A stretch of DNA of 64,000 bases from Patescibacteria group bacterium (GCA_018817315.1 JAHITV010000018.1:12012-76011); one strand, 5' to 3'. Shown: positions 35,465 through 56,793, counted from the first letter of the stretch. A program made the numbers and translations. The notes: a model not told the origin generated them from the sequence alone.

Positions 35465-37021
35465 ATGTCAAAAAAGAAGCAAAAAATTTGGAAGGCAGTG
35501 GCAGACATTGTCCAGAATACTTGTTTTATGATGGATTATCCGCTTAGATTTTTCTTTGAAGAATGGCCTAAATTGGGTCTTGGAAAAAAGTTTAATGAGT
35601 ATTTTACTTATTTTAAAGGTGATTTTAGTCAGATGGTTTATGTGGCGTGGGAGTTTGACGATCAGACAGAATTTATGGCAAAGAAGGTGATAAAAAAGCC
35701 GGTTTGGGCATACGGCCTGTTAAAAAAGGTGGAAGATTATTCTACTGAATTTTTTAGGGAAATGAAGAAAGTTAAGAAGTTGCCTTTAAGCAAGATGAGT
35801 AACGCTGAAATAATTAAGTTTCTAAAAAAGGTGGGTAAAATTCATTCCTGGCAGCATGGCTTGGGCGCGGCTCTTTCCTGGCATGCTGACGCTGAAGGCG
35901 AAAGAGTAACCAAGGCAGTGATGGCAGTAATAGAAGAAAGATTAAAAAAATCCTCTGTCAAGAAAAGTCTAGCAGAAGTTTTTTCCCTCATTACCACACC
36001 TCTTAGAGAAAGTCTTATACAGACTGAAGAAAAGAGTTTTTTGAAAGTTGCCCAAAGTATCAGTCAGCAGAAAAAAATGAAAAAAGTTTTTATTCAATCT
36101 GATTTAGATGAGTTAGTAAATAATTTAAAAGGTCTTGATAGGAGAACTTATAGAAAAATTTTAACTCATTATAATAAGTTTGCTCCTTTAACTTATCAAT
36201 ATAAAGGTCCGGCTTTCCCGCTTAGTGATTATGTCGGTAGATGGCAGGCATTATTGCGAGATGGAGCTTTACCAAATAAATTATTAAGGGAGTTAGAAAG
36301 AGAAAGTCAAAAGTTAAAAAAAGAACAGCAAAAATTAATTAAATCATTAAATTTCACCTTTCAAGAATCAAATTTAATAAAAGTTGCTCAATACATGATG
36401 TTTATTAAAGATTACCGCAAAAACGCTTTATATAATGCCATGTATTATTATGAATTTATTTTTAAGGAAATCGGTAAAAGATTACATTTGTCAGTTGGTC
36501 AGATACAGGCCATGGGATTTAAAGAGATTGTCCAAGCTTTACAATCAGGCAAAGTAAATACAGATGAATTAAATCAGAGACAGAAAGAAGCGGTAGCTTA
36601 TTGGGTTAGAAAACCTCAAGGGGTTAAAGATAAGATTTTGGTTGGCAAAGAGATGAAGAATTTTTTAAAGAAAATAGTTTGGCAAAAAATAAACACTGAA
36701 TCAGACGAATTAAAAGGTACCTGCGCTTATCCAGGAAAGGTTACAGGTATTGTTAAGATTATTAATACTCCAGACCAGATGAATAAAATGGAAAATGGTA
36801 ATATTATGGTGGCTCATAATACTAATCCTAACTTAGTGCCAGCCATGAAAAAAGCCACAGCTATTATAGGCGGCGCAGGCGGCTTAACCTGTCATTCTGC
36901 CATTGTTGCTCGGGAAATGAGAATTCCTTGCGTGGTAGGCGTAGCTAATTGCGACAGAATCTTAAAAGATGGTGATAAGGTAGAGGTAGATGCTGATAAA
37001 GGAGTAATAAGAAAAATCTAA
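35465..37021 (+). CDS. PEP-utilizing-enzyme swivel-domain protein, array paralog 1 (variable N-terminal domain + C-terminal phosphohistidine domain)
   Basis: C-terminal 'GGAGGLTCHSAIVAREMRIPCVVGV' is the PEP-utilizers phosphorylation signature. The shared 'E(I/L)xKRL' motif is present. Confidence 0.7.
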   Translation: MSKKKQKIWKAVADIVQNTCFMMDYPLRFFFEEWPKLGLGKKFNEYFTYFKGDFSQMVYVAWEFDDQTEFMAKKVIKKPVWAYGLLKKVEDYSTEFFREMKKVKKLPLSKMSNAEIIKFLKKVGKIHSWQHGLGAALSWHADAEGERVTKAVMAVIEERLKKSSVKKSLAEVFSLITTPLRESLIQTEEKSFLKVAQSISQQKKMKKVFIQSDLDELVNNLKGLDRRTYRKILTHYNKFAPLTYQYKGPAFPLSDYVGRWQALLRDGALPNKLLRELERESQKLKKEQQKLIKSLNFTFQESNLIKVAQYMMFIKDYRKNALYNAMYYYEFIFKEIGKRLHLSVGQIQAMGFKEIVQALQSGKVNTDELNQRQKEAVAYWVRKPQGVKDKILVGKEMKNFLKKIVWQKINTESDELKGTCAYPGKVTGIVKIINTPDQMNKMENGNIMVAHNTNPNLVPAMKKATAIIGGAGGLTCHSAIVAREMRIPCVVGVANCDRILKDGDKVEVDADKGVIRKI

Positions 37022-37101
37022 TATATTTTAAGTCAATATAAGGTTGACTTAAAGTTAAACTTTTGTTAAACTTTTATTATTAAGAAGCTAACTGATAAAT
37101 T

Positions 37102-37320
37102 ATGAGCAATATAATAGGTTTAAAAGAGTTAAGGCAAAATATGCCGGCTTATGCTAAAAAAGTTGAAAAAGGTCAATCTTTTGTGGTAGTTAAACAATCT
37201 AAGCCTTTGTTTAAAATCACTCCCTTGGAACAGGAAAGCGAGGAATGGGAGGAAGTAATTGATTTTACCAAAATTAAAAGAGGCGGAGTTAAATTAGATC
37301 AGCTACTTAGTCGTCTCTGA
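37102..37320 (+). CDS. Phd/YefM-family type II antitoxin
   Basis: 72 aa. 'LKELRQNMPAYAKKVEKGQSFVVVKQSKPLFKITPLE' fits the Phd pattern. It lies 4 nt upstream of the toxin. Confidence 0.55.
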   Translation: MSNIIGLKELRQNMPAYAKKVEKGQSFVVVKQSKPLFKITPLEQESEEWEEVIDFTKIKRGGVKLDQLLSRL

Positions 37321-37324
37321 ATTT

Positions 37325-37573
37325 ATGGACAAAATAGCTAAAGCTTTAAAACTTTTAAATCAGAGAGAAAAAAATACTGTCGCTGATATCTTAACTTCGC
37401 TTGAGAATCGGCTTTTTAAAAATTTAGACATCAAAAAACTTAAAGGCCATGATGATATTTTTAGGGCGCGAAAAGGAAAAATAAGGATTATCTACCGTTT
37501 AGTTAAAGGCAATATTATGATTTTAGCTATTGAGCGAAGGTCAGAAAATACGTATAAGAAGTTTAAAAAATAG
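37325..37573 (+). CDS. RelE/ParE-family type II toxin
   Basis: 82 aa. 'RARKGKIRIIYRLVKGNIMILAIERRSENTYKKF' fits RelE/ParE. Confidence 0.6.
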   Translation: MDKIAKALKLLNQREKNTVADILTSLENRLFKNLDIKKLKGHDDIFRARKGKIRIIYRLVKGNIMILAIERRSENTYKKFKK

Positions 37574-37578
37574 TTTGT

Positions 37579-38799
37579 ATGTCAAAAACCAAATGGATTA
37601 AACAACTAACCAGAGAAAATACTTTACTTGATAGGAGTTTAAGGACTTTGGCTTATCATCAAAGTGTCAGGGAGCTTGGCAAAGCAAGTATTTCTAAATG
37701 TCCGGTTGTTGGTTTTAATAAAGTTACTTCTTGGTATTATTCGCCTGTTGATTTTAAAAATCAGCAAAAGATTATTTTTAGTGAATTTAAAGGAAAAAAT
37801 ATTGATAAAATGGGTTTAGTCATCACTAAATTTTTGGAACAAGGGTATTTATGGGCCAAATCGCAGAGAGTTAAAAAAATTTTTAAAAAAGAGTTTAGCG
37901 ATTATCTCAAAGAATCGCAGAAACATCATGCCCATGGCCGGGGAGCGATTGTTTATGGTTATTGGGGCGAGCCAATAGTCGCTCAAAAATTAAAGAAAGT
38001 TTTAATAGGAAAAGTTAAACCAAGCGAAGTTGATCATACTTTATCAATTCTTTCTGCACCAAGACCAGTTAAAGGCCCTTTGACAGGGTTTCATCATTTA
38101 GCTAAAAGTGAAGTTAAAAAGCAAAAATTAATTAAAAAATTAAAATTGACTGTCAAAGAACAGGAATTGGTAAAAATCCTTTCCTGGTTTACTTTTTTTT
38201 ATGAAATGGGCGAGCATGTTTCTTCTTATCTTTATGATCAATTAGTTTCGCATTTAAAAAAAACAGTCAGAAACAAAAAAGAGTTAGTAGAATTAGCCTG
38301 GTACGATCCTTACAGTTTAGAAAAATATTTTAAAGGTAAAAAATTAAGCCAAGAGGAAATTAAGCGCCGTCAGAAATGCTACATTCTTAAAATTGATAAA
38401 AACAGATTAACTATTTTAAGCGGAGAAAAGGCGCAGGCTTATTATGATAAAAATTTTACAGAAAAATTACCCAAACAAGTACCAGTAATTAAAGGTACAG
38501 TCGCCAGTTTAGGTAAAACTCAAGGAATAGTTAAAATAATTATTACCCAGGATGATCAAAAGAAAATGCAAAAAGGTGACATTTTAGTTTCTACTATGAC
38601 CACGCCTCGTTTAATGACTGCTGTTAAAAAAGCCGGCGCAATTATCACTGACGAAGGAGGAATGACTGCTCATGCTGCCATTGTCAGTCGCGAGTTTAAT
38701 ATTCCTTGTATTGTAGGAACAAAAGTTGCGACTAAAATTCTCAAAGATGGAGATAAAGTAGTAGTAGATGCGGAGCGAGGTATTGTCAAGAAAGTATAA
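37579..38799 (+). CDS. PEP-utilizing swivel-domain protein, array paralog 2
   Basis: 'TDEGGMTAHAAIVSREFNIPCIVGT' at the C-terminus. Confidence 0.7.
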   Translation: MSKTKWIKQLTRENTLLDRSLRTLAYHQSVRELGKASISKCPVVGFNKVTSWYYSPVDFKNQQKIIFSEFKGKNIDKMGLVITKFLEQGYLWAKSQRVKKIFKKEFSDYLKESQKHHAHGRGAIVYGYWGEPIVAQKLKKVLIGKVKPSEVDHTLSILSAPRPVKGPLTGFHHLAKSEVKKQKLIKKLKLTVKEQELVKILSWFTFFYEMGEHVSSYLYDQLVSHLKKTVRNKKELVELAWYDPYSLEKYFKGKKLSQEEIKRRQKCYILKIDKNRLTILSGEKAQAYYDKNFTEKLPKQVPVIKGTVASLGKTQGIVKIIITQDDQKKMQKGDILVSTMTTPRLMTAVKKAGAIITDEGGMTAHAAIVSREFNIPCIVGTKVATKILKDGDKVVVDAERGIVKKV

Positions 38800-38802
38800 T
38801 AT

Positions 38803-40338
38803 ATGTCAAATATTGAATTATTACATCAAGAAACGTCTGTAAGTCCATTTACTTTAGGGGTTTACTATCGTGGTTTTCATCAAACCAAAAAAAATCATAA
38901 ATATCTTAAACCATTATATTTTAAGAATTCTTTTGTGGTTTTTAAAGGTGACAAAGTTGATTGGTACGGCGATATGGATAATTTTAAAGAGATGGCTGAT
39001 AAGATTATTAATGATGTTAAAAAAGATCCAAAATACAGTCAACGTTTATTAACTGATGTAAATAAACTTACTCAAAAGATTTTCAATGAAGGTAAAATTA
39101 TTCTTAAGTTAAATTTAAGGAAGTTGTCTAGTCAAACAATTGCTAGTCATTTAAATAAAATGTACCAGCTGGGTCAGGATATTAGTGATTTGGGCATGGT
39201 AGCGGTAATTCCAGATTTAAGACATAGTAAATTAACTACTTTATTAAAAGATATTATTAAGCAGAGAATTCAGCGGTTTAAGATAAAAAAACAGATTAAT
39301 TATTATTTTACCCCTTTAATTACTCCCACTGGAAGAGGTTTAGTGCATCAAGAGAAATTAGTAATTTTAAAATTAGTAAAAAAAGTTTCTCAAAATAAAG
39401 AATTAAATCAATTATTCAAAAAATATACACCGGATTATATTAATAATTTTTTGAAAAATAAATTCCCTGTAATTTTTAAGGAGATAGAAAATATTCATCA
39501 TAATTATAAATGGCTTTATTTTGGCCAGTTAGGCCCAGCTAAGTCTTTTACTCAATATCTTGAAGATATTAAGGTATATCTTCAAGATAAAAAGTTTAAG
39601 CAGGAATACAGCTCTTTAATCAAAGAAGGTAAAAATCTAAAAAGGTTACATAATCAGTACACCAAAGAGCTGCATCTTAACAATGTTGAAGAAAAATTAT
39701 TCATGGCTGCCAGAGATTTTAGCTATAATAAAACCTGCCGTTTTGACGCTCTTCTTTTTGACTATTATGTTTTAGATCAGTTATTAAAAGAAATCTCTAA
39801 AAGAAGCGGCTGGATAGTAAAAGATTTACGTTATATGTCAGTTGAGGAGATTATTAAGTTATTACAAAACAAAAAATGTCTCAAAAATAAAGAAATTAAA
39901 ACAAGAGAAAGGTTTTGTATCACTATTATAAGAGGTAAAAGAATACATTTTTTAACTGGCGTAAAAGCCAAAAATTACTTAAAACAAAAAGTAAAGAATT
40001 TAAAAGTAGAAGAGGATAAAACCATAATTCATGGCATGAGCGCTTTTTTGGGAAAAGTCAGCGGTACAGTAAAAATTGTTAATTCGCCCAAAGACATTAT
40101 TAAGATCAAAACAGGTGATGTTTTAGTTTCGGTACAAACCAATCCTGATTTATTGCCAGCCATGAAAAAAGCGGCTGCCTTTGTGACTGATATTGGCGGA
40201 ATTACTTCGCATGCTGCTATTGTCGCCAGAGAAATGAAAAAACCTTGCATTGTAGGTACAAAAGTCGCTACTACGATTTTTAAAGACGGAGATAAAATAG
40301 AAGTTGATGCTGTAAAAGGAGATGTTAAAAAAATTTAA
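38803..40338 (+). CDS. PEP-utilizing swivel-domain protein, array paralog 3
   Basis: 'TDIGGITSHAAIVAREMKKPCIVGT' at the C-terminus. Confidence 0.7.
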   Translation: MSNIELLHQETSVSPFTLGVYYRGFHQTKKNHKYLKPLYFKNSFVVFKGDKVDWYGDMDNFKEMADKIINDVKKDPKYSQRLLTDVNKLTQKIFNEGKIILKLNLRKLSSQTIASHLNKMYQLGQDISDLGMVAVIPDLRHSKLTTLLKDIIKQRIQRFKIKKQINYYFTPLITPTGRGLVHQEKLVILKLVKKVSQNKELNQLFKKYTPDYINNFLKNKFPVIFKEIENIHHNYKWLYFGQLGPAKSFTQYLEDIKVYLQDKKFKQEYSSLIKEGKNLKRLHNQYTKELHLNNVEEKLFMAARDFSYNKTCRFDALLFDYYVLDQLLKEISKRSGWIVKDLRYMSVEEIIKLLQNKKCLKNKEIKTRERFCITIIRGKRIHFLTGVKAKNYLKQKVKNLKVEEDKTIIHGMSAFLGKVSGTVKIVNSPKDIIKIKTGDVLVSVQTNPDLLPAMKKAAAFVTDIGGITSHAAIVAREMKKPCIVGTKVATTIFKDGDKIEVDAVKGDVKKI

Positions 40339-40341
40339 TTT

Positions 40342-41877
40342 ATGAAGGATTATTACACTTTAAAAAATATCAAAAAAGTAAAGTGGGGGGTTTTGGAAGA
40401 AAACCAGCCAATTAGCTTGTATCCTATTATGTATCCTGGTTGGTGCGGGATTATAAAAGGAACAGGCAGGATTTTAGGTAAGATTCAAAGAAGTATAATT
40501 TGCGTACATCAAAAACTCCATGGTTTTATTTTTATAAATCATAAAGAATGGACAGTCCTTGGTCAATATGCTTTAAAAAAAATTTTAAAAAATTCCTCAT
40601 GGGGCTACAATTTAAATAAAAAGATTCTTAAATACGCAGACGAGTTGATTGATTTTACCCATCATCAGATTTTTAAAGTAAATTTAAAAACAAAAACCAA
40701 AAATCAGCTTTATAAATTGTATAAAGAATACGATACTCGCCACAGCAGATTATACAACCAGGCTATTGTGCCGGTGTATCTGGATTTATACAAACCGCAT
40801 TTAACTTTTTATTTAACTGAATATTTACATCAACAGGTTAAAAAAGTTAAATACAGCAAAACTGCCAAAGAGTGTTTTGCTCTTTTAACAGTGCCGGAAA
40901 AGTTATCCAAAGTCCAATTAGCAGAGAAAGACTTATTGAATTTAGCTTTTAAAATAAAAAAAAGTTTAAGAGGCAGATTATTCAGTAAAAAAAGTGTTTC
41001 TAAAGATTCAGGAAAAAAAATTAATCAGCATATAGAAAAATTCAGGTATCAAGGATATAACTTTGAAGGGCCGGCTTTCCATGATAGTTATTTTGAGAAA
41101 AGATTAAAAGAAATGATAGAAGATAAAATTAGTCCAGCCATTAAACTTAAAGAAATTATTAAAGAAAAGAAGCAAGCCCAAAAAATCCATCAACAGTTAA
41201 TAAAAGATTTAAAAATAGATTATCAACATCACAAACTTCTAGAAATCACCCAAGGTTTTATTTATTCCAAAGACTACCGAAAGATGAGTTTAGTACAGTC
41301 ATATTATGAATTAGAGCCATTACTTAAAGAGATTGGAAGGAGATTGAAGTTAAGTTTGCCAGAAATCAGAAATTGTTTGTTAACAGAGATTAAATTAATG
41401 ACCGAAGGCAATCTTGCTAAACCAAAAGATTTAAATAAAAGAATGAAGGGTTGTTTATTTGTGGTCATAGACAGAAAATTACCAGGCAAAGTGTTGGTTG
41501 ATTCAAGGTATGTAGAAATGAGGAAATACCTCCTTAAAAAAGAAGATTTAACTCAAGTTAATTATTTTCATGGTCAAGCCGCTTGTTTAGGCAAGGCAGA
41601 AGGAACAGTTAAAATAATTAATACCATCAAAGATCTGCCTAAAATGAAAAAAGGCAATATCATGATTTCCCAGATGACCAACCCAGATTTAGTACCAGCC
41701 ATGAAAAAAGCTAAAGCCATAGTTACTGATTTAGGCGGTGTCACCTGTCATGCTGCTATAGTCTCCAGAGAATTAAGAATACCTTGTGTTATTGGAACTA
41801 AAATTGCGACTAAGGTGTTAAGAGATGGTGATAGGGTAGTGGTGGATGCTAATCAAGGTGATGTTAAGAAAACATAG
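40342..41877 (+). CDS. PEP-utilizing swivel-domain protein, array paralog 4
   Basis: 'TDLGGVTCHAAIVSRELRIPCVIGT' at the C-terminus. Confidence 0.7.
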   Translation: MKDYYTLKNIKKVKWGVLEENQPISLYPIMYPGWCGIIKGTGRILGKIQRSIICVHQKLHGFIFINHKEWTVLGQYALKKILKNSSWGYNLNKKILKYADELIDFTHHQIFKVNLKTKTKNQLYKLYKEYDTRHSRLYNQAIVPVYLDLYKPHLTFYLTEYLHQQVKKVKYSKTAKECFALLTVPEKLSKVQLAEKDLLNLAFKIKKSLRGRLFSKKSVSKDSGKKINQHIEKFRYQGYNFEGPAFHDSYFEKRLKEMIEDKISPAIKLKEIIKEKKQAQKIHQQLIKDLKIDYQHHKLLEITQGFIYSKDYRKMSLVQSYYELEPLLKEIGRRLKLSLPEIRNCLLTEIKLMTEGNLAKPKDLNKRMKGCLFVVIDRKLPGKVLVDSRYVEMRKYLLKKEDLTQVNYFHGQAACLGKAEGTVKIINTIKDLPKMKKGNIMISQMTNPDLVPAMKKAKAIVTDLGGVTCHAAIVSRELRIPCVIGTKIATKVLRDGDRVVVDANQGDVKKT

Positions 41878-41895
41878 TAAATTATTTATAATCTT

Positions 41896-43503
41896 ATGAA
41901 GTATTTAAAAGATGGTGATCCTTGGTATTTAGCTGAAGATATTCCGGACATGGATTTATTTTTTTCAGAAATTTGGCTTTCCTGTTTTGTTAATGAATTT
42001 AAAAATCCTACTGGCCGGGCGTATAAAAAAATTCTGACGCTTTTTAAGGGTTATCATTTATGGTTTTATTTTGGTGAAAATGATTCCAATTTAGAGGGCG
42101 AACATATCGTTAATAAGTTTATTAAGAACCCAAACTTTGCCAAAAAAGTAAATAAACAAACTATCATTGAAGCGGATAAATTAAGAAAGTTCGCCGAAAA
42201 ATTGCCAGAGGAAAACTTGCAAAAGTTATCCCAAAAACAACTTTGGGAATATTACGCCAATCATGACAAGATCCATACTCATTATTACCAATGGGTTTGG
42301 ATTCCGGTTGGCGCTGATATGTTCCATAATAATTTAACAGAAAGATTAAAACAATATTTAAGAAGTCTTAAGGTAACAGAAGATAAGATTAATGAGTATC
42401 TAGTCGTTTTAACCCAGCCAATGAAAAAATCTTTGATCCAGATTGAAACAGAGGAGTTTTTAAAGATAGCAGATTCAATCCAAAAAGATAAATATTATCA
42501 TAAATTATTTAAGGATTTATACAGAATTTTTGAAGAGCAGGAAGTGACTCCTTATGGCTTGGCTACCCATACACCAGAGTACGAACGATTATTGGAAAAG
42601 AAAATGGATGATCTCAAGGATAAAATCAAAAAGCCGTTGTTGCAAAAAATTTACAATCATTACCAAAAGTATTATTACGTCAAATTCATGTGGATTGGCA
42701 AAGAAGGCGTTAACAGTTTTGATTATTATCTTAAAGAGTTGGTTAAGATTGTTGGCCGGGAACAGAACGCCAAGAAGTTATTGACCGAAAAACAGAAAGA
42801 GCTGCAGCAGATTCTAAAGCAAAGAAAGAAACTGATAAAAAGATTACCAATCACCGGCAAATGGAAAGTATTGTTTGATAATTTTGGTGATTTTATGGTA
42901 ACTAAAATTTATCGGCGCTACGCCCAGATTTATGCTGTTTATCGGATGCAGCCAATTCTCAAGGAAATTGCTAAACGTCTTAAAATCAGCCTTTTTCAAG
43001 TAAGGTTTATGTTGCCTTCAGAGATTGCTAAAGCTTTATTAAAAGGAAAAATCAACCGTCAGGAATTAAAACAGCGCACCCATTTTTGCGTTCATTATAC
43101 AGAAAAAAATTATGAAAAAGTTTTTGTGGGTCAAGAGGCAAAAAAGATGGCTACCTTGATAAAAGCAAAATCTTTGGCTAAGGTAGAAGAGATTAAAGGT
43201 CAAACCGGTTGTATAGGAAAAGCTACGGGCGTTGTTAAAATTATTTTTCGGCCTAAAGATATGGTTAAAATGAATAAAGGCGATGTTTTAGTTTCTATTG
43301 CCACTGATCCTGATATTGTGCCAGCCATGAAAAAAGCAGCAGCCATTGTCACTGAACAGGGCGGTGTTACTTCCCATGCGGCGATTGTCAGCCGAGAACT
43401 AAAAATTCCTTGTGTGATCGGGACTAGAGTTGCAACCAGATTATTAAAGGACGGTGATAAGGTTGAGGTTGATGCTACCAAAGGAATTGTTAAGAGAATA
43501 TAA
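41896..43503 (+). CDS. PEP-utilizing swivel-domain protein, array paralog 5
   Basis: 'TEQGGVTSHAAIVSRELKIPCVIGT' at the C-terminus. Confidence 0.7.
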   Translation: MKYLKDGDPWYLAEDIPDMDLFFSEIWLSCFVNEFKNPTGRAYKKILTLFKGYHLWFYFGENDSNLEGEHIVNKFIKNPNFAKKVNKQTIIEADKLRKFAEKLPEENLQKLSQKQLWEYYANHDKIHTHYYQWVWIPVGADMFHNNLTERLKQYLRSLKVTEDKINEYLVVLTQPMKKSLIQIETEEFLKIADSIQKDKYYHKLFKDLYRIFEEQEVTPYGLATHTPEYERLLEKKMDDLKDKIKKPLLQKIYNHYQKYYYVKFMWIGKEGVNSFDYYLKELVKIVGREQNAKKLLTEKQKELQQILKQRKKLIKRLPITGKWKVLFDNFGDFMVTKIYRRYAQIYAVYRMQPILKEIAKRLKISLFQVRFMLPSEIAKALLKGKINRQELKQRTHFCVHYTEKNYEKVFVGQEAKKMATLIKAKSLAKVEEIKGQTGCIGKATGVVKIIFRPKDMVKMNKGDVLVSIATDPDIVPAMKKAAAIVTEQGGVTSHAAIVSRELKIPCVIGTRVATRLLKDGDKVEVDATKGIVKRI

Positions 43504-43611
43504 TATGATTTTATCCCGCTATTGCTTCGCTCATCAGGATGCTCGATTTTGTTGCGAAATCAAAGATTTCGACAAAATCGGCAAAATAATTAAATAATTA
43601 ACCAAAATATT

Positions 43612-44556: not shown

Positions 44557-44562
44557 AATAAT

Positions 44563-46023: not shown

Positions 46024-46027
46024 AAAT

Positions 46028-47005: not shown

Positions 47006-47009
47006 AAGT

Positions 47010-47975: not shown

Positions 47976-48129
47976 TAATTTTGGAGAATAAAATAAATAG
48001 TTTATTATGCCTCAAAAAATAAAATGGATAAAATTTTTTAGTCGCGGTAATCATCCTTTATTATTTATAGATTCGGTAACTATTGCTTATCGTGATAAAT
48101 ACGCTAAGTATTTTAATTTACCTTTTTAG

Positions 48130-49329: not shown

Positions 49330-49347
49330 AGTCTTAATTTAATATTT

Positions 49348-50862
49348 ATGGCTTATAAAATTTTTGCCCGCGAAGTGGCTGCTCCTTTTTCTCCTATGCT
49401 TTTTTATTCTTTAGCAGAGATTGACGAAAGAGTTAATAAAATAGCGGGTTTTAAAGCAAAATCATCTTTACAAGAAGTCGTAGAAACAAATATCAGGTGG
49501 TGTTTGGAAGAGCAAAACACTTTAGCTATCCAAAAGAAAGTTTTTAAGAAGCTGGCAAAAAAACAGTTTTACCAAAAGGTGGTAAAAGAAAGTTATTCAA
49601 CCTTGGAAAAATTTAAACAAGCAATTCTTTTAATTAGAAAGCAAAATTTTAAAAAATTTACAGCCGGAGAATTAGCCCAATCTTTAGATAATTTTATAAA
49701 GATTTGGATTAAAGCTACTATTTGGGGACATATTATTAATATGTCTGATTTTCATTTTAATTTGTTGAGCGCTAAGCTTATAAAGTTAATCACAGAAAGG
49801 ATTAAAAAAAATAAAATAAAAGTTTCTACTGCCGAAGTGTTTGCCGTTTTAACTACTCCTCTTAAACGGAGTTTGCTTTTAGAGCAAGATCTAAACATGT
49901 TAAAATTACTAAAAGAGATTCAAAAGAATAAAGATTTAGAAAATTCCTTCAGGCAAAATAAAAATTTAAGAGCTAAATTAGAAAAATCATCTCTTTGGCC
50001 TAAAATCAAAGCTCATACCAAAAAATATGATTGGTTGCAGTATCATTATCTCGGTCCTACCATACTTTCGGTAAATTATTTTATTGAACTTTTACAAGGA
50101 TTAGTTAAGCAGAAAGTAAAAGCAGAAGAGAATTTAAAAGACTTAATGAATAAAGAAAAAGAAACAGAGGAGAAACAAGAAGAATTAAAAGATAAACTGA
50201 AATTCACTTCATCAGAGCTTTACTGGATAGAAATGGCTAAAGAGTTTATTTACTTAAAAGGTTATAGAAAAGATCTCACTTTTATGGCTTGCCGCTCTTA
50301 TGAGGACTTGTTAAAGGAGATGGCTAAAAGGTTTGATATTTCTTTAAAACAATTACAGTTTATGACTTTGGAAGAAATCTTAGATGGTTTAAGAAATAAT
50401 AATTATCCAAACCCGGATTTATTAAATGAACGGTTTAAATATTGCGTTATTTATTATCCTCAAGGCAAGGCAAAAGTGTATGTTGGTAAAAAAGCTAGAA
50501 AAATGGCAGAAAAAATTAAGGAAGAGAAAATTTCAGAAAAATTAAGAGAGTTTAAAGGTACGCCTGCTTTTCCGGGTAAAGCTACAGGTAAGGTAATTAA
50601 AGTATTTAATAGTAAAGATATGTCTAAGATGAAAGAAAAAAGGATTTTAGTTTCTCCTGCCACTAATCCTAATATTATGCCGGCTATTACTAAAGCTGCC
50701 GCTATTATCACTGATGAAGGTGGTATTACCTGTCATGCCGCTATCGTCAGCCGAGAATTAAAAATACCTTGTGTTATTGGCACTAAAATTGCTACACAAG
50801 TTCTTAAAGACGGTGATAAAGTGGAGGTAGATGCGGAGCAGGGTATTGTCAAAATTTTATAA
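49348..50862 (+). CDS. PEP-utilizing swivel-domain protein, array paralog 8
   Basis: 'TDEGGITCHAAIVSRELKIPCVIGT' at the C-terminus. Confidence 0.7.
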   Translation: MAYKIFAREVAAPFSPMLFYSLAEIDERVNKIAGFKAKSSLQEVVETNIRWCLEEQNTLAIQKKVFKKLAKKQFYQKVVKESYSTLEKFKQAILLIRKQNFKKFTAGELAQSLDNFIKIWIKATIWGHIINMSDFHFNLLSAKLIKLITERIKKNKIKVSTAEVFAVLTTPLKRSLLLEQDLNMLKLLKEIQKNKDLENSFRQNKNLRAKLEKSSLWPKIKAHTKKYDWLQYHYLGPTILSVNYFIELLQGLVKQKVKAEENLKDLMNKEKETEEKQEELKDKLKFTSSELYWIEMAKEFIYLKGYRKDLTFMACRSYEDLLKEMAKRFDISLKQLQFMTLEEILDGLRNNNYPNPDLLNERFKYCVIYYPQGKAKVYVGKKARKMAEKIKEEKISEKLREFKGTPAFPGKATGKVIKVFNSKDMSKMKEKRILVSPATNPNIMPAITKAAAIITDEGGITCHAAIVSRELKIPCVIGTKIATQVLKDGDKVEVDAEQGIVKIL

Positions 50863-50866
50863 ATTT

Positions 50867-52336
50867 ATGTCTAAGATTAATTGGATCCAAGTAACCAAAA
50901 GCGGAAAACTTCCTTTATTTTTAATGTGTACTATCCCTTATGCTTATAAGGAAGGATATCTGGGAAAAGTTTTAAAAGCTGATTTTAAAATTCATTATTA
51001 TCGTAGGATTTTAGGAGCATCTTATTTTGCTAAAAAAGAATGGGATGATTATTTAAAATTGATTAAAATTAAAGAGAACAATAATCCAGGTTATTTACTG
51101 AAAATAGGAACAGAGTTTGAAAAAAGAATTAAAGAGATTATTCTTTTCTGTAAAAAATATAATAATCGTGATTTTTCTAAAGTAAAGTTGCAGGAGCTCA
51201 AAAAGATTTATGATCAGTTTATTGATTTAAAAAAACAATGGCTTACTCCTGATTACACTTATTATGTAATAGATCGCTATTTACCAGAAATTCTTACTAT
51301 AGAAATTTCTAAAAAGCTGAAAAATAAAGAAAGGTTTAATGAAATTATTGAAGTCCTTACTAGTCTTGATCGTTCAACCCTGATCAGAGAGGAAAAAGTC
51401 CGGTTATTAAAATTAGCTGATTTAATAAAGAAAAAGAAATTCTCTTTTAAAAGTAAAAAGATCCAGAAACTAATTAAAAATCATATAGAAAAATTCGGTT
51501 TTCTTAATTATTATTTTTATTATTATAAACCTTATACTGCGATTCAGTTAGAAAAAAGAATTAAGGAAATTTTAGGTAAAAATATTAAGGCAGAAATCAA
51601 AAAAGTTGCAGCACAAGAGAAAAACAAAGAATTAACTCAAAAAATAATTCAAGAGCTTAATTTATCTAAAAAAACGCGGCTTATTATTAAAACTTTAAAA
51701 CAATGGGGATATTGTCTTAATTATCTTGATGAAGCTGGTTGTTTGATTAATCATTACTTTAAAAATTTTCTTTTAGAATTAGCTAAAAGGATGAAGATAA
51801 GTTATGCTATGTTAGTGGAGATGAATTTTGAAGAAATTGATGACTTTTTTAAAAAAGGAGAAATTTCTCCTCAACTGAAAATAAAATTAAAAGAAAGGAT
51901 AAAAAGCTGGGGATTGATTTGGAGCGGCGGAAAATTAAATATTTATTCAGGCAAGGAGTTAGCGAAATTGGAAAAAAGCGAAGTAAAGCAAAAAAAAACT
52001 CAAACAAAACAGGTCAAATTAATAAAAGGAGTTAATGCCTCCTCTGGAGTGGTAAAAGGGAAGATTCGGCTTTTGGAAAGTCATTGTGACATTTTTAAGA
52101 TGAAAAAAGGCGAAATTTTAGTAACTTCCAAAACCAATCCTAAATTTGTTCCTGCTATGGAAAAAGCTTTAGCTATTATTACTGATGAAGGCGGTTTACT
52201 TTCTCATGCGGCAGTTGTTTCCCGGGAATTAAAAATTCCTTGCATTACCGGTACTAAAATCGCCACTAAAATGCTCAAAAACGGAGATCAAGTGGAAGTA
52301 GATGCGGATAAGGGTATAGTTAAAAAAATAAAATAA
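50867..52336 (+). CDS. PEP-utilizing swivel-domain protein, array paralog 9
   Basis: 'TDEGGLLSHAAVVSRELKIPCITGT' at the C-terminus. The start is set at the internal Met after the previous gene's stop. Confidence 0.65.
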   Translation: MSKINWIQVTKSGKLPLFLMCTIPYAYKEGYLGKVLKADFKIHYYRRILGASYFAKKEWDDYLKLIKIKENNNPGYLLKIGTEFEKRIKEIILFCKKYNNRDFSKVKLQELKKIYDQFIDLKKQWLTPDYTYYVIDRYLPEILTIEISKKLKNKERFNEIIEVLTSLDRSTLIREEKVRLLKLADLIKKKKFSFKSKKIQKLIKNHIEKFGFLNYYFYYYKPYTAIQLEKRIKEILGKNIKAEIKKVAAQEKNKELTQKIIQELNLSKKTRLIIKTLKQWGYCLNYLDEAGCLINHYFKNFLLELAKRMKISYAMLVEMNFEEIDDFFKKGEISPQLKIKLKERIKSWGLIWSGGKLNIYSGKELAKLEKSEVKQKKTQTKQVKLIKGVNASSGVVKGKIRLLESHCDIFKMKKGEILVTSKTNPKFVPAMEKALAIITDEGGLLSHAAVVSRELKIPCITGTKIATKMLKNGDQVEVDADKGIVKKIK

Positions 52337-52338
52337 TT

Positions 52339-53745
52339 ATGTGGATAAAAAAATATACTCGTCCATCAAATGTTCAATATGATGAGCTGATCAGGGGCAG
52401 TGGTTTATTTCAGATACCTCTTCTTGTTTCAGTGATTAAGAGTTGTTTGGGTTTTCCGGTTGGCAAAGGTTTTTTGGAATTTTATATTCAAGAAAATGAA
52501 TGGGATAATCTAATGGAAAAAATGTCTAAGAAGATGTTGCGAGGACGGAATTTTTATCAAAGGTATGTTCAAGATTATCGCCAAGTTAGCAAACAATATT
52601 ATAAATCAGCTTTGCCTTTTAAAAAAGACTTAACCAAATTATCTAACAGGCAATTATTTAATCTTTATCAAAATTTTGTTAAATCAACTAGAGCAATGTG
52701 CTGGTTTTTTTATTCGGTTTGGGCAATTAATGAAGTCATTGAACCGGCATTCAAGAAAAAGATAATTAAAAAGTTTGGCGCTAAAGCTAAAAAGATTCTT
52801 TTAGCCATTAATTCCTTAACCCAAACCATCAGATTTGATCAACAACTAAAAGAGCTGTTAATTCTTAAAGATAAGGGCAATATTAATCAAAAAACATTAC
52901 AGGCCCATGTTCAGAAATGGGGTTATTTAAAAGTCTACGCGCCTCATCATCAACCTTTCAAAAGCGCTGATTTTCTTAAGATGATTAAAGGTGTTAAACC
53001 AAAAAAGCAACTCAAGGAAATAATAAAAGGATTAAAAGAAAATCAGAAGCAATATCAACAAGCTTTACAATTATTAAAGATCAATGAGGGATTATTTAAT
53101 CTAGCGCGCCTGATAAATTTGAATATTTATTTAAGAAACGAAAGGATGGATTTATATCGTGAAGTGACGATGTTAGTCAAGCCCTTTTATCAGGAATTAG
53201 ATCGGCGTTTGGGTTTGGCCAATTACCAGTCATCCTTTTTAACCATTGATGAGATAAATCAATTTCTGTTAAAAAATAAAAAACCAAATTTTCGTGAAAT
53301 TAAAGAGCGCGCTAAAATAAAATATGCCTGGTATTGTCAAGGTAAAACCAGAAGGTTAATTTTAAATCAAGCTGAAATCAAAAAATTATATAAAAAGAAA
53401 CTTGGTTCAAAGGAAAAATATTACGAATTAAACGGCATGGTTGCTTATCCGGCCGGTAAAGTTAGAGGCAGAGTCAGGATTGTTATTTCGGTCCATGATG
53501 AATTAAAATTTTGTCCCAAAGAAATTTTGGTTACTCCCATGACTCGTCCTGAATACACTAATATTATGAAAAAAGCTGCGGCTATAGTGACTGATGAGGG
53601 TGGCGTGACCTGTCATGCCGCAGTTCTTTCTCGCGAGTTAAAAATACCTTGTGTGATTGGCACAAAAATCGCCACCAAAGTTCTTAAAGATGGTGATATG
53701 GTAGAAGTTGATGCCAATAAGGGAATTATTAAAAAGTTAAAGTAG
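52339..53745 (+). CDS. PEP-utilizing swivel-domain protein, array paralog 10
   Basis: 'TDEGGVTCHAAVLSRELKIPCVIGT' at the C-terminus. Confidence 0.7.
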   Translation: MWIKKYTRPSNVQYDELIRGSGLFQIPLLVSVIKSCLGFPVGKGFLEFYIQENEWDNLMEKMSKKMLRGRNFYQRYVQDYRQVSKQYYKSALPFKKDLTKLSNRQLFNLYQNFVKSTRAMCWFFYSVWAINEVIEPAFKKKIIKKFGAKAKKILLAINSLTQTIRFDQQLKELLILKDKGNINQKTLQAHVQKWGYLKVYAPHHQPFKSADFLKMIKGVKPKKQLKEIIKGLKENQKQYQQALQLLKINEGLFNLARLINLNIYLRNERMDLYREVTMLVKPFYQELDRRLGLANYQSSFLTIDEINQFLLKNKKPNFREIKERAKIKYAWYCQGKTRRLILNQAEIKKLYKKKLGSKEKYYELNGMVAYPAGKVRGRVRIVISVHDELKFCPKEILVTPMTRPEYTNIMKKAAAIVTDEGGVTCHAAVLSRELKIPCVIGTKIATKVLKDGDMVEVDANKGIIKKLK

Positions 53746-54452: not shown

Positions 54453-54467
54453 TAACATAGATACTAT

Positions 54468-54508: not shown

Positions 54509-54525
54509 ATTATTAATCAATTGAA

Positions 54526-55143
54526 ATGACTAAGAAAAATAAAATTAAATTGATTATTTTTGATTGTTATGGTTTGGTTTTAAACGAAGGTTTTCCTAAT
54601 ACTGCCAAAGCTTTGACTAAAAAATTCGGAGGCAAGTATCAGGACTATTATAAGGTGATGTATAAAAAATATTTTAATTTAGCAGCAGAAAGAAAAGTAT
54701 CTCAAAAGCAAGCGTGGTTTAAAACAGTAGAACGTTTTAATCTTCCTTTAACTTGGCAGGAATTAAGAGATTTACATTATAGCTTAATGAAAGTAGATCA
54801 AAGAGTAATTAACCTAAATCAGCAATTAAACAGCAGGGGTTATAAGACATTACTTTTATCAAAAAACACTCGTAGTCAATTCAGCGATGTTTGTCGAAAA
54901 TTTGGTTTGAAAAATAAATTTAAAAATGTGATTAATACTTGGGAATTGGGATTGCCTAAAGCTAGTCAGGCAACGTTAAAAGTAATTTTGAAAAGATTTA
55001 AAGTTAAGCCCAAAGAGATAATTTATGCTGATGATCAAATGAATAATTTAACGGACGCTAGAAAAATGGGCATTAAAACTATTTTAGTTAAAAATTTTAA
55101 GCAGCTCAAAAAAGAATTGAATAGTCTTTTGATTTCTTCTTAA
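54526..55143 (+). CDS. HAD-superfamily hydrolase-like protein (motif I variant with a single Asp)
   Basis: 'KLIIFDCYGLV' (hhhDxx) and C-terminal 'IYADDQMNNLTDARKMGIKTILV' (motif IV DD). Confidence 0.4.
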   Translation: MTKKNKIKLIIFDCYGLVLNEGFPNTAKALTKKFGGKYQDYYKVMYKKYFNLAAERKVSQKQAWFKTVERFNLPLTWQELRDLHYSLMKVDQRVINLNQQLNSRGYKTLLLSKNTRSQFSDVCRKFGLKNKFKNVINTWELGLPKASQATLKVILKRFKVKPKEIIYADDQMNNLTDARKMGIKTILVKNFKQLKKELNSLLISS

Positions 55144-55219
55144 ACTTTATCCAATTGAGCTAGATAGAATCAACTTTTTATATTTGACACTTCGGCTTTT
55201 CGCTATGCTCAAGGCTCAG

Positions 55220-55256
55220 TGTCAACCCAGCCCCGCTTAGCGGGGCTGGGTTGACA
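55220..55256 (+). terminator. Rho-independent terminator: tgtcaacccagccccgc-ttag-cggggctgggttgaca followed by an A/T-rich run
   Basis: Perfect 16-bp GC-rich stem. Confidence 0.6.
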
Positions 55257-55312
55257 TAAATAATATTTGTGATAAGATATTTTCGTTATTGTTTTTTTGT
55301 GTACTCTTTTCA

Positions 55313-55405
55313 GGCACCGTAGCTCAATCGGTACCTGCCTGCCGGCAGGCAGGGAGCGCTTTCCAGATCGGGAAGAGGTTGCTGGTTCAAGTCCGGTCGG
55401 TGCCT
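55313..55405 (+). tRNA. Atypical tRNA (anticodon GAU-like, Ile?) carrying a 20-nt perfect palindrome (cctgcctgccggcaggcagg) inserted in the D-loop; possible pseudogene or intervening sequence
   Basis: Manual fold. Acceptor ggcaccg/cggtgcc. D-stem gctc...gagc, interrupted by the palindrome at 55334-55353. Anticodon loop cAGATCg has A33 and C37, both non-canonical. T-arm gctgg-ttcaagt-ccggt. Confidence 0.45.
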
Positions 55406-55422
55406 CAATTTACAGTTTAACA

Positions 55423-55496
55423 GGTGCTGTAGCTCAGGTGGTTAGAGCGCCTGTCTGATAAACAGGAGGTCGGAGGTTCGAGTCCTTTCAGCACCA
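55423..55496 (+). tRNA. tRNA-Ile (anticodon GAU)
   Basis: Manual fold. Acceptor ggtgctg/cagcacc. D-arm gctcaggtggttagagc. Anticodon stem cctgt/acagg with loop cTGATAa. T-loop ttcgagt. Confidence 0.8.
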
Positions 55497-55514
55497 CACT
55501 TTACAAATTCAACC

Positions 55515-55588
55515 GGCGGTGTAGCTCAGGTGGTTAGAGCGCCTCCGTGACATGGAAGAGGTCGCGGGTTCGACTCCCGACACCGTCA
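55515..55588 (+). tRNA. tRNA-Val (anticodon GAC)
   Basis: Manual fold. Acceptor ggcggtg/caccgtc (one G-U). D-arm gctcaggtggttagagc. Anticodon loop gTGACAt. T-arm gcggg-ttcgact-cccga. Confidence 0.75.
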
Positions 55589-55695
55589 CTATAAAGGCCT
55601 ATGCAATTAGATGGTAGGCTTTTTTCTTTGATTTATTCCCCTTCGCCCTTCGCTACGCTCAGGGCTTTGGGGAATGAAATAGATTAATTAAATAC

Positions 55696-55718
55696 CTCGT
55701 CCAGCTTAGCTGGACGAG
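55696..55718 (+). terminator. Perfect 10-bp hairpin ctcgtccagc-tta-gctggacgag downstream of the tRNA cluster
   Basis: Inverted repeat read directly, with no strong T-run. Confidence 0.4.
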
Positions 55719-55812
55719 ATGACAAATGTATTTCATAATAAATATTCTGGTCTAATAATTTTTGTTGTTAAAAATTATTTTTTATGTTATAATTAACTAA
55801 GATTTTTAACTT

Positions 55813-56793
55813 TTGATTTATATGAGTAAATATATTTTACCTTTTAGTAAACTGGATAATAAAAGTGTAAAAGTGGCTGGGGGTAAAGGTGCTTCTTTGG
55901 GCGAAATGACTCAAATTAAATTGCCAGTACCGCCAGGGTTTGTGGTTTTGGCTTCAGCTTTTGAGCATTTTATAAAAAATACCAAGCATCTTCACGGTAA
56001 AACCCAAGCTGATTTAAATGTAATGATTGCGGCTGCTTTAGATAAAGTTAATTATAAGGATGTTAATTCTATTGATCGTACCTCAAATGTTATTCGTGAT
56101 TTGATTAATAGATCAAAAGTATTACCAGAGATCAAAAAAGAGATAATTCAGGAGTTTAAAAAGTTTAAAGCTAAATGGGTAGCGGTGCGCTCTTCTGCTA
56201 CTGCTGAAGATTCTAAAATTGCTTCCTGGGCAGGAGAGCTAGACACCTTTTTGTATGTTGATGAAAAGAAATTAGTAGAGACAGTTAAAAAATGTTGGTC
56301 TTCTCTTTTTACGCCTAGGGCGATTTTTTATCGTTTTGAAAAAAAGCTTCTTAAAGTTCCGGTTAGTGTGGCAGTGGTAATTCAGCAAATGGTCAAAAGT
56401 GAAATTTCGGGCGTAGCTTTTAGTGTTCATCCAGTAAGTAAGGACAAAAACCATCTGATTATAGAGGCCGGTTATGGTTTAGGTGAAGCCATTGTTTCTG
56501 GCACCATTACTCCTGATACTTATGTAGTCCAAAAAAAAGAGAATACTATTTTAGATGTTAATATCAGTACTCAACAAAAACAGATTGTGATGAAGACAGG
56601 CGGCGGCAGTATTTTAAAGCCAGTAGCTAAAAGCATGCAGTCCAAACAAAAATTAACCGGTAAGGAGATTATAGAATTAGCACAAATTATTAAGAAAATT
56701 GAAAAACATTATAAATCTCCGCAGGATATTGAATGGGCTTTGGTTAAAGGTAAGTTTTATGTATTACAATCAAGACCAATTACTACTTTATAA
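55813..56793 (+). CDS. Stand-alone PEP synthase / pyruvate phosphate dikinase / rifampin-phosphotransferase-type N-terminal ATP-grasp (PPDK_N) nucleotide-binding domain protein
   Basis: 'KSVKVAGGKGASLGEMTQIKLPVPPGFVVLASAFEHFI' matches the PPDK_N start. C-terminal 'PQDIEWALVKGKFYVLQSRPITT' matches the domain end. The 326 aa include no swivel or PEP-binding domains. Confidence 0.75.
   Translation: MIYMSKYILPFSKLDNKSVKVAGGKGASLGEMTQIKLPVPPGFVVLASAFEHFIKNTKHLHGKTQADLNVMIAAALDKVNYKDVNSIDRTSNVIRDLINRSKVLPEIKKEIIQEFKKFKAKWVAVRSSATAEDSKIASWAGELDTFLYVDEKKLVETVKKCWSSLFTPRAIFYRFEKKLLKVPVSVAVVIQQMVKSEISGVAFSVHPVSKDKNHLIIEAGYGLGEAIVSGTITPDTYVVQKKENTILDVNISTQQKQIVMKTGGGSILKPVAKSMQSKQKLTGKEIIELAQIIKKIEKHYKSPQDIEWALVKGKFYVLQSRPITTL

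Follow-up and report, generated by a model that had tools for sequence, protein, structure and literature searches.

A single stand-alone ATP-grasp gene and an array of ten paralogous genes, found together in a Patescibacteria genome fragment of 64,000 nucleotides (the whole stretch analysed, hereafter the window), probably form a two-component "water dikinase" system similar to rifampin phosphotransferase (RPH), in a one-to-many form. Each of the ten paralogs (S1 to S10) joins a putative substrate-binding domain (N) to a phosphohistidine swivel domain (C), while the remaining gene encodes only the ATP-grasp domain (G). Together, the paralogs take up about 14.5 kb, or 23% of the window (Table 1).

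Table 1 Features of the array and of its surroundings (positions counted from the first nucleotide of the window)
Feature	Position	Strand	Description	Evidence and remarks
S1	35465–37021	+	518 aa, RPH-type substrate-binding and His swivel domain (predicted)	PF00391 E 1.2e-23, residues 443–513
Phd-like and ParE/RelE-like small ORFs	37102–37573	+	Phd-like (37102–37320), ParE/RelE-like (37325–37573)	Weak PF05016 match, E 4e-4, below curated cut-off
S2	37579–38799	+	406 aa, short form	PF00391 E 7.8e-26
S3	38803–40338	+	511 aa	PF00391 E 4.8e-25; 3 nt downstream of S2
S4	40342–41877	+	511 aa	PF00391 E 6.2e-25
S5	41896–43503	+	535 aa	PF00391 E 7.6e-26
HP1	43612–44556	+	Histidine phosphatase superfamily, helical cap	
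S6	44563–46023	+	486 aa	PF00391 E 3.1e-24
APH	46028–47005	+	APH / choline-kinase family kinase	PF01636 E 1.6e-17
ORF 47010	47010–47975	+	321 aa, "FFRHDE" motif	No Pfam or NCBIfam match
S7	48130–49329	+	399 aa, short form	PF00391 E 9.8e-25
S8	49348–50862	+	504 aa; paralog used for structure model	
S9	50867–52336	+	About 489 aa	PF00391 E 9.9e-25; ORF opens at 50831, overlapping S8
S10	52339–53745	+	468 aa	PF00391 E 6.7e-26
HAD	54526–55143	+	HAD-IA phosphatase	PF13419 / PF00702 E 1e-13
Three tRNA genes	55313–55589	+	Unusual 93-nt one, Ile-GAT, Val-GAC	ARAGORN; Rfam RF00005, 41–73 bits
ATP-grasp	55822–56793	+	Stand-alone ATP-grasp (PPDK_N), proposed common ATP-charging module	PF01326 E 9e-94

The profile PF00391 matched the C-terminus of all ten paralogs (E 1e-23 to 1e-26; 83–90 bits against a Pfam gathering cut-off of 23.1), and the catalytic histidine of the GG-x-T-x-H-A-A motif is invariant among them. 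Pfam and the alignment thus agree with an earlier note on this DNA, which had claimed a common C-terminal domain of this type with a conserved histidine. The motif is of the PEP-synthase type (GG-x-T-[CS]-H); the longer signature quoted in that note holds as a consensus and not literally, the first paralog displaying GGAGGLTCHSAIVAREMRIPCVVGV. The N-terminal parts (289–425 aa) are homologous yet highly diverged, as had also been claimed, with pairwise identities of 13–26%. The swivel domain, which would need to dock on a common partner, displays a mean identity among paralogs of 55% (44–64% over the last 105 aa) versus 20% for the N-domain. Total lengths span 399–535 aa. In agreement with the claim that the paralogs carry neither an ATP-grasp domain nor a PEP/pyruvate TIM-barrel, the Pfam scan detected PF01326 and PF02896 in none of the ten; PF02896 was likewise absent from the ATP-grasp gene and from every other ORF scanned in the window. 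The number of ten genes was correct, but they are not strictly consecutive, since the Phd/ParE-like pair, HP1, the APH kinase, and ORF 47010 are interspersed among them. Scanning the array for promoters and terminators yielded about as many matches as shuffled sequence (86 vs 76 and 10 vs 11, respectively); hence, the operon structure is argued from the gene spacing of 3–20 nt alone.

The ATP-grasp ORF (55813–56793) matched PF01326 and no other Pfam family, scoring 314.8 bits (cut-off 27) and covering positions 2–311 of the 328 in the profile. The protein pairs end to end with residues 1–316 of RPH-Lm, and the ATP-site residues K22, R117, T136, and E297 (RPH numbering) are conserved. A separate gene encoding only this domain had been described as starting at 55813 and as 326 aa long; the gene is there, but its start is most likely the ATG at 55822, which gives 323 aa and matches the public record. 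Its homologs (59–77% identity) are all 310–342 aa long, and in more than 100 of them the C-terminal end falls exactly at the domain boundary. This protein is therefore a member of a conserved family of stand-alone proteins and not a fragment of an ordinary ppsA, a possibility raised in the earlier note. The HAD gene and three tRNA genes lie between it and the array, 2 kb away, which places it outside the array transcript.

RPH-Lm (PDB 5FBS, 5HV1) is the sole solved structure that matches the paralogs across both the N-domain and the swivel. The fold of the modelled paralog, S8, was predicted at high confidence, and the model suggests an RPH-type helical substrate-binding domain immediately before the swivel. 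When the N-domain alone was compared with PDB sequences, only noise was retrieved (best match, an LSD1 coiled coil at E 0.06), with no significant match to RPH; thus, the homology of this domain to RPH rests on the predicted structure and the profile. In RPH, R666 and K670 are required for the second phosphotransfer (PMC4844700). A K-x-x-R-K motif of the paralogs lines up with these residues, with a basic residue at the position of R666 in eight of the ten and K or R at that of K670 in five. This first-position basic residue is what holds of the "KDYRK" landmark proposed earlier, which is literal in S1 and S4 only. S2, the most diverged paralog, displays Y in the motif column and S9 displays L, and both have no basic residue at the R666 position. 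The position of the essential Glu667 of RPH is acidic in five of the ten paralogs and unconserved across the family.

Numerous CPR and DPANN genomes carry arrays of this kind, as a survey of related genomes, proposed in the earlier note, revealed. At least three N+C genes were found in 22 of 79 related loci and at least five in 15, with array sizes of 3–10 paralogs, and no locus among the 79 displayed more than one stand-alone ATP-grasp gene. In the reverse test, all six stand-alone ATP-grasp homologs were flanked by paralogs (from 3 to at least 6). Meanwhile, 50 of the 72 N+C-bearing loci had no ATP-grasp inside 10 kb, a count of loci only, as further copies elsewhere in these genomes are possible. 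Fused G-N-C ORFs were detected in eight loci, and database proteins join G to several N-C units, including G-N-C-N-C. Database matches of 850 aa that were first read as RPH-like fusions are in fact tandem N-C-N-C fusions. The N-domain family comprises 5130 cluster representatives, concentrated in two large radiations of episymbiotic microbes, and the arrays are located amid housekeeping genes of very small genomes. In public records, the relatives carry no labels other than "phosphoenolpyruvate synthase", "PEP-utilizing enzyme", or "hypothetical".

From one syntenic relative to the next, the set of paralogs changes, while the ATP-grasp stays conserved. In two such relatives, the ATP-grasp is 71–75% identical, whereas orthologs were found for three of the ten paralogs in one (L084) and for none in the other (L085). 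The orthologs in L084 include those of S1 (56%), S4 (62–64%, with another in locus L017), and S5 (70%); S5 is also 64% identical over 530 aa to a protein in L021, a MAG labelled Nanoarchaeia. A scan of viral contigs yielded matches to the swivel domain and none to the N-domain, and thus gave no indication of the modules being carried by phages.

Acylphosphatase, HAD, and histidine phosphatase genes recur beside the arrays. The HAD is the commonest accessory gene: in 13 of 80 loci, homologs lie at most three genes from the arrays, and L084 and L086 have homologs as well. HP1 displays both the histidine phosphatase fold and the catalytic R-H...R...H set, and genes of its type recur as accessories inside such arrays. 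The earlier note had listed histidine-phosphatase-like genes in the plural; a second one is unconfirmed, as ORF 47010 could not be linked to HP1 (BLASTP E 1.2, no match to the HP1 HMM), and no homologs of this ORF were found in related loci. That note had also taken the co-located genes to suggest a phospho-modification system, which suits the HAD and HP1 and does not extend to the APH kinase and the toxin-antitoxin pair. No homolog of the APH kinase was found in any related locus: it is specific to this genome and no conserved part of the system. The Phd/ParE-like pair, with no counterpart in other arrays, is probably an unrelated insertion. We considered whether the 389-aa gene that follows the ATP-grasp encodes a third subunit but rejected this, because the gene always accompanies a PrgI/TraC/VirB4 cluster; it belongs with this type IV secretion-like cluster. 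PADLOC returned no defence-system match for S8, the ATP-grasp, HP1, ORF 47010, the APH kinase, ORF 53952, the HAD, or ORF 56820.

We postulate a mechanism in which ATP would be bound by the 323-aa ATP-grasp protein, and its beta-phosphate would be passed to the swivel histidine of any of the ten paralogs, with release of AMP and Pi. The charged swivel domain would then return to its own helical N-terminal domain, where the phosphate would be transferred to the small molecule that occupies the pocket specific to that paralog. With any paralog open to charging and each pocket specific, one conserved charging subunit would serve a library of variable specificity. The genomic arrangement suggests that the one ATP-grasp charges all ten paralogs, each of which may have its own substrate, perhaps metabolites derived from the host or else toxic/antibiotic compounds. 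The HAD and the histidine phosphatase nearby are probably involved in later removal of the phosphate or in resetting the system. There is precedent for such a mode of action, as HpeHI, PpsAB, and CreHI operate likewise as two proteins (PMC12167813). A broader and decidedly more speculative possibility is that CPR and DPANN share a combinatorial kinase, in which a slow-evolving ATP-grasp charger would phosphorylate the swivel histidines of a fast-turnover, evolvable set of specificity subunits, as many as ten or more, each acting on a different small molecule. For ultra-small symbionts, such a kinase would be a cheap substitute for many dedicated kinases in trapping host-derived metabolites or disarming toxic compounds, with modules swapped across the bacterial-archaeal boundary.

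Other explanations for these genes were weighed. The paralogs could act without the ATP-grasp, moving phosphate between small molecules or taking it from another donor, while the ATP-grasp has a separate role. HpeH is capable of this by itself, transferring phosphate from 4-phosphoacetophenone to acetovanillone without its partner (PMC12167813), and both the majority of N+C loci with no ATP-grasp nearby and the tRNA genes that separate the array from the ATP-grasp in the window are in line with it. Nevertheless, the location of every stand-alone ATP-grasp homolog among paralogs, together with the fused G-N-C ORFs and the G-N-C-N-C proteins, makes this reading unlikely. The window also offers the ATP-grasp no other candidate partner, as neither a PEP/pyruvate barrel nor a further swivel protein was found among the ORFs scanned. 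A role for the paralogs as regulatory histidine kinases or in a phosphorelay with protein targets, by analogy with VadK or PTS enzyme I, is quite unlikely, since an RPH-type substrate domain makes a phosphorelay less likely than small-molecule phosphorylation.

We consider it very unlikely that the paralogs are biosynthetic enzymes of the ligase type (PigC/RedH/HapC), in which phosphate activates a carbonyl for condensation in the building or tailoring of natural products. These enzymes share the RPH-like superfamily with the paralogs, and the weak NCBIfam similarity to PigC/RedH extends past the swivel (e.g., residues 190–516 of S1, E 3e-19), but the scores of 56–76 bits are far under the cut-offs of 1300–1350. 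Moreover, the scanned neighbourhood displayed no PKS, NRPS, or pyrrole-pathway genes, and a setting of housekeeping genes in very small genomes argues against such a role. As for remnants of ppsA, or decaying duplicates devoid of function, the public labels of the relatives and the similarity of the swivel and ATP-grasp to archaeal PEP synthase speak in their favour. However, the ORFs are intact and have full-length orthologs at up to 70% identity elsewhere, the PF02896 barrel is missing, the fold is predicted at high confidence, the N-domain family is large, and the ATP-grasp ends at its domain boundary throughout its homologs. The intact ORFs, missing barrel, and conserved families refute this explanation, to which we assign almost no probability.

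CPR genomes are roughly 1 Mb in size; hence, the ten paralogs would make up around 1.5% of such a genome, a large outlay for an organism that lost most of its metabolism. If one ATP-grasp serves many subunits, as we propose, this would be a modular design for kinase diversity that is undescribed for this enzyme class. It would also imply a set of phosphorylated metabolites at the symbiont-host interface, and wherever a "PEP synthase" call in the metabolic reconstruction of a CPR or DPANN genome rests on these genes, it would need correction.

Among known systems, archaeal PEP synthase provides the best sequence matches for both the swivel and the ATP-grasp (the match to 8a8e has E 1e-27 and 5e-64, respectively), and the NCBIfam PEP_synth models scored 100–318 bits, under cut-offs of 598–740. 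PEP synthase and PPDK possess a PEP/pyruvate TIM-barrel, whereas the substrate domain of the paralogs is another fold. PigC, RedH, and HapC also combine an ATP-grasp, a helical substrate domain, and a swivel histidine, but they are single chains of about 880 aa that phosphorylate for condensation in a pigment pathway. RPH is likewise a single chain, of 867 aa (ATP-grasp, RIF-binding domain, and swivel), while here these parts are split into separate genes. The paralogs are just 14–17% identical to it, do not keep Glu667, and score 33–67 bits with the NCBIfam RPH models (NF041857 / NF000283; cut-offs 999–1700); nothing suggests that rifamycins are a substrate.

The closest parallel is provided by the two-protein dikinases PpsAB, CreHI, HpeHI, and AcvAB, already characterised with the same split (PMC12167813). 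Thus, the split architecture put forward in the earlier note is present but not novel. HpeI and PpsB consist of an ATP-grasp only, and HpeH and PpsA of an RPH-type substrate domain followed by the His swivel, as found here. The window ATP-grasp matched PDB chain 9goj at E 6e-45; this chain, whose deposited name is "Phosphoenolpyruvate synthase", is probably HpeI. The paralogs scored 60–106 bits with the NCBIfam PRK08296 models, whose cut-offs are 578–730. No description of the arrays was found in the literature searched, which covered few subscription-journal papers, so that this is not proof of absence. The known enzymes make AMP and Pi via a swivelling phosphohistidine, and a pathway phosphatase (AcvF/HpeD) acts later. 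They are encoded by one-to-one gene pairs in Proteobacteria and Actinomycetota and act in aromatic catabolism with a carboxylase, whereas the genes described here stand at ten to one in CPR/DPANN, with no carboxylase among the window neighbours scanned. The specificity subunits are also shorter than the models of about 570–630 positions. It is this many-to-one arrangement, and not the split itself, that looks new.

The array lies in an ordinary chromosomal context (locus tags KKF32_02070 to 02135 of a Patescibacteria MAG, on a 99,465-bp contig), with EF-P, SSB, ribosomal protein S6, LeuRS, KsgA and class II ribonucleotide reductase genes upstream and a type IV secretion-like cluster downstream. 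The earlier note had described ten swivel-domain ORFs and one ATP-grasp-only ORF, which was confirmed with small corrections. The mobile domain of PEP-utilising enzymes (PF00391) matches about 70 C-terminal residues of ten ORFs on the + strand (E 1e-23 to 1e-26), PF01326 occurs alone in the downstream ORF, and the Pfam scan found neither PF01326 nor PF02896 in any of the ten. The paralogs do not form an unbroken run as had been claimed, since a Phd/ParE-like pair, a histidine phosphatase, an APH-family kinase and an unassigned ORF lie in between; likewise, the quoted swivel signature holds as a consensus but not as an exact string. The phospho-accepting His is kept in 10/10 paralogs. MAFFT alignment gave 44-64% identity (mean 55%) over the last 105 residues and 13-26% (mean 20%) over the preceding 289-425 residues, which are yet alignable throughout. 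The swivel domain, which has to dock on the common partner, is thus the best conserved region of the paralogs. Such a pattern is consistent with a shared partner, although it is weak evidence for one because the same holds for PEP-utilising enzymes in general.

Coordinates of features in the window and in related loci of other genomes
Feature	Location	Coordinates
Class II (B12-dependent) ribonucleotide reductase, C-terminal TSCPD domain	window	1348-4224
Two adjacent very large ORFs	window	19014-30455
Array of ten paralogs (S1-S10)	window	35465-53745
Paralog S2	window	37579-38799
Paralog S4	window	40342-41877
Paralog S5	window	41896-43503
Histidine phosphatase HP1	window	43612-44556
Paralog S8	window	49348-50862
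Paralog S9	window	50867-52336
Perfect 18-nt inverted repeat	window	55220-55256
tRNA-like gene	window	55313-55405
Inverted repeat within the tRNA-like gene	window	55326-55361
ATP-grasp ORF	window	55813-56793
Secretion-like cluster	window	56820-63768
Homolog of S5	L021	9791-11431
Acylphosphatase (PF00708)	L086	12511-12783
Acylphosphatase (PF00708)	L087	12507-12782
Flavin genes	L081	11033-14283

No Pfam or NCBIfam model covers the N-terminal domain (N-domain) above threshold, and as a single sequence it had no match in the PDB. A profile built from 62 family members could be aligned to residues 521-866 of RPH-Lm, a rifampin phosphotransferase (RPH), at E 1e-28, and the alignment extends ~240 residues upstream of the swivel domain. 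Hence, each paralog joins a RIF-binding-type domain to a swivel domain, which the first reading of the sequence had guessed. Their "KDYRK" landmark aligns with G-Y-R666-E667-Y-P-K670 of RPH, a stretch whose R666, E667 and K670 touch the transferred phosphate and in which the substitutions R666A and E667A eliminate phosphotransfer in its second step (PMC4844700). In the window, the R666 column is basic in 8/10 paralogs (Y in S2, L in S9) and the K670 column is K or R in 5/10; the E667 column is acidic in 5/10 and is not conserved across the wider family. In the public record, S8 (KKF32_02095) is a 373-aa "hypothetical protein" that leaves out the first 131 residues of the ORF. The longer form is supported by full-length orthologs of 496-506 aa (56-58% identity).

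PF01326 (PPDK_N ATP-grasp) is the sole Pfam domain of the downstream ORF and spans it end to end (E 9e-94). The protein likely starts at the ATG at 55822, which gives the 323 aa of the public record, and its stop coincides exactly with the ATP-grasp boundary of RPH at residue 316. It matches residues 1-316 of RPH-Lm (E 2e-59), the archaeal PEP synthase 8a8e (E 6e-64) and the 387-residue chain 9goj (E 6e-45), deposited as "Phosphoenolpyruvate synthase", which we take to be the stand-alone ATP-grasp protein HpeI. The RPH ATP-site residues probed by mutagenesis (K22, R117, T136 and E297; PMC4844700) are all conserved. Its best 120 database relatives (59-77% identity) are all 310-342 aa long and carry PF01326 only, which bears out its stand-alone status and rules out a gene fragment.

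Arrays of this kind recur in related genomes, as the earlier note had proposed to check. A survey of one genome per species (GTDB representatives), in which locus ORFs were scored with HMMs of the N-domain (N) and swivel domain (C) and with the ATP-grasp sequence (G), yielded 79 loci. These span many Patescibacteria lineages (Nealson-, Taylor-, Uhr-, Buchanan-, Komeili-, Morani-, Woese-, Roizman- and Levyi-bacteria) and include DPANN archaea (Micrarchaeota, Iainarchaeum, Woesearchaeota, Nanoarchaeia). At least two N+C genes were present in 35/79 loci, at least three in 22, at least five in 15 and at least seven in six; a Nealsonbacteria locus with 10 and a Woesearchaeota locus with 9 are examples. 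None of the 79 contained a second stand-alone ATP-grasp. Seven loci (L006, L008, L026, L030, L038, L042, L067) share the layout of the window, namely an array and a single ATP-grasp gene on the same strand, the latter at the array end or among its last genes in the gene maps. Conversely, starting from stand-alone ATP-grasp homologs on long contigs, 6/6 were flanked by three to at least six PF00391-only genes. G-N-C fusion ORFs, single chains like RPH, occurred in 8 loci.

Of 1.84 billion representatives of 50%-identity clusters, a profile of the ten N-domains alone matched 5130 at E <=1e-3 (3513 at <=1e-10). The domain order was scored in the 138 best matches, of which 105 were single N-C proteins, mostly of ~500 aa. 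Tandem fusions of whole units were also observed among database proteins (P0144-P0148, P0145, P0197, P0277), as N-C-N-C or N-C-N-C-N-C, and three fusions included the ATP-grasp (N-C-N-C-N-C-G-N-C of 2309 aa, G-N-C-N-C and N-C-N-C-G). These may be real polyproteins, since some junctions have no start Met, or alternatively read-through gene calls.

Loci L084 and L085 are syntenic with the window, running from a UPF0020 methyltransferase through the array and the ATP-grasp to a 388-aa gene and PrgI/TraC/VirB4. Their ATP-grasp proteins are 75% and 71% identical to that of the window. Meanwhile, L084 has at least six paralogs, only three of them orthologous to window genes (S1 56%, S4 64%, S5 70%), and the 3 paralogs of L085 are each at most 36% identical to any window paralog. 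Therefore, the chromosomal site stays fixed and the ATP-grasp evolves slowly, while the number and repertoire of its neighbouring paralogs turn over fast. Some paralogs are closer to genes of distant genomes than to their own array: identity is 62% between S4 and an L017 gene, and 64% over 530 aa between S5 and a gene of L021, from a MAG labelled Candidatus Nanoarchaeia, versus at most 40% between either and other window paralogs (local BLASTP). The S5 match points to CPR-DPANN transfer or to mis-binning. The paralogs belong to old subfamilies, which seem to move from lineage to lineage.

Neighbours of family members were clustered across 80 loci. The HAD-IA phosphatase of the window was the commonest companion (13/80 loci), and HAD genes also occur in L084 and L086. 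Other histidine-phosphatase-like genes and acylphosphatases adjoin the ATP-grasp in L085, L086 and L087. The acylphosphatase genes of L086 and L087 lie directly 3' of the paralog downstream of the ATP-grasp; this enzyme adds a third phosphohydrolase class associated with the system. The Hpe/Acv pathways offer a precedent for pairing a kinase with a pathway phosphatase; there, phosphorylation serves as a transient activation. The arrays are accompanied by neither a carboxylase nor any other obvious pathway enzyme. Genes for riboflavin kinase (flavokinase), an FAD-synthetase-like nucleotidyltransferase, riboflavin synthase and lumazine synthase adjoin arrays in several loci (L081, where HP1 and the ATP-grasp gene flank them, and L032, L058, L068, L078) and are a possible lead to the substrates. 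The APH-like kinase and toxin-antitoxin pair, which the earlier note had taken as hints of a phospho-modification system, had no counterparts in related loci, and neither had ORF 47010 and ORF 53952.

The secretion-like cluster that follows the ATP-grasp gene encodes a 389-aa protein, PrgI, a TraC-like protein and a VirB4/TraG P-loop ATPase, and is conserved in L084, L085, L020 and L005; the 389-aa gene always travels with it. T4SS pilin genes come next in the window, L084 and L085. Three tRNA genes separate the array from the ATP-grasp gene. A 93-nt tRNA-like gene (Rfam tRNA score 40.8 bits) received no assignable anticodon from ARAGORN, which reported a four-base "ggca"; it has an inverted repeat of ~18 nt per arm just past the D-loop region and may hold an intron or insertion like those reported for CPR tRNAs. 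The stretch from the HAD gene to the tRNA cluster contains an 18-nt inverted repeat (TGTCAACCCAGCCCCGCT / AGCGGGGCTGGGTTGACA) whose arms match perfectly and are 1 nt apart, and by eye a "TTCGCTA[CT]GCTCA[AG]GGCT"-like motif flanks the cluster on both sides, near 55200 and 55650. Elsewhere, the two very large ORFs (2770 aa and 1042 aa, the latter with no Pfam match) probably encode giant surface proteins; GC skew is strongly elevated (0.32) around 28-30 kb.

The domain identities, fold, catalytic residues and gene arrangement are established here; we infer that one ATP-grasp charges all ten paralogs and that each has its own substrate. By homology with RPH and HpeHI, the ATP-grasp would bind ATP, whose beta-phosphate would go to the swivel His of a paralog while AMP and Pi leave. 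The swivel domain would then swing back to its own N-domain, where the conserved basic motif would place the phosphate for transfer to a hydroxyl or other nucleophile of a bound small molecule. We regard this mechanism as a whole as probable. It is unlikely that the paralogs carry out phosphotransfer independently of the ATP-grasp, slightly more unlikely that they are protein-directed regulatory kinases like VadK or enzyme I, and we give still less credence to PigC-like ligases. That they are ppsA fragments or pseudogenes is refuted by the lack of PF02896 in the paralogs, the 5130 N-domain cluster representatives and the uniform 310-342 aa of the ATP-grasp relatives.

Two ideas about the substrates of this putative phosphotransfer to small molecules fit the data. 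Kinship with RPH, fast turnover and variable copy number favour antibiotic or xenobiotic detoxification. The conservation of subfamilies across domains, the phosphatases found as partners, the neighbouring flavin genes and the way these organisms live favour the capture or activation of metabolites that they scavenge.

The structural interpretation of the earlier note was largely right, and the split architecture it saw is present; the split itself is not novel, because PpsAB, CreHI, AcvAB and HpeHI had already been characterised. The two-component RPH-like dikinase is established, with the same division of labour in the ATP-dependent phenylphosphate synthase PpsAB, 4-cresol kinase CreHI and acetovanillone/hydroxyacetophenone kinases AcvAB and HpeHI (PMC12167813). 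Crystallography showed HpeI to be an RPH-like ATP-grasp, HpeH was modelled as RIF-binding-like and swivel domains, and the conserved His is essential in HpeHI (PMC12167813). What appears not to have been described is the hallmark common to CPR bacteria and DPANN archaea, in which one ATP-grasp stands next to as many as ten specificity subunits in a rapidly evolving array: we found no account of these arrays in the literature, our coverage of which was incomplete and does not prove absence. Against the PRK08296 models (NCBIfam) of the known two-component systems, the window proteins scored 60-106 bits versus cut-offs of 578-730. In those systems the two genes form 1:1 pairs within clusters for aromatic catabolism, whereas the window sets ten paralogs against one ATP-grasp.
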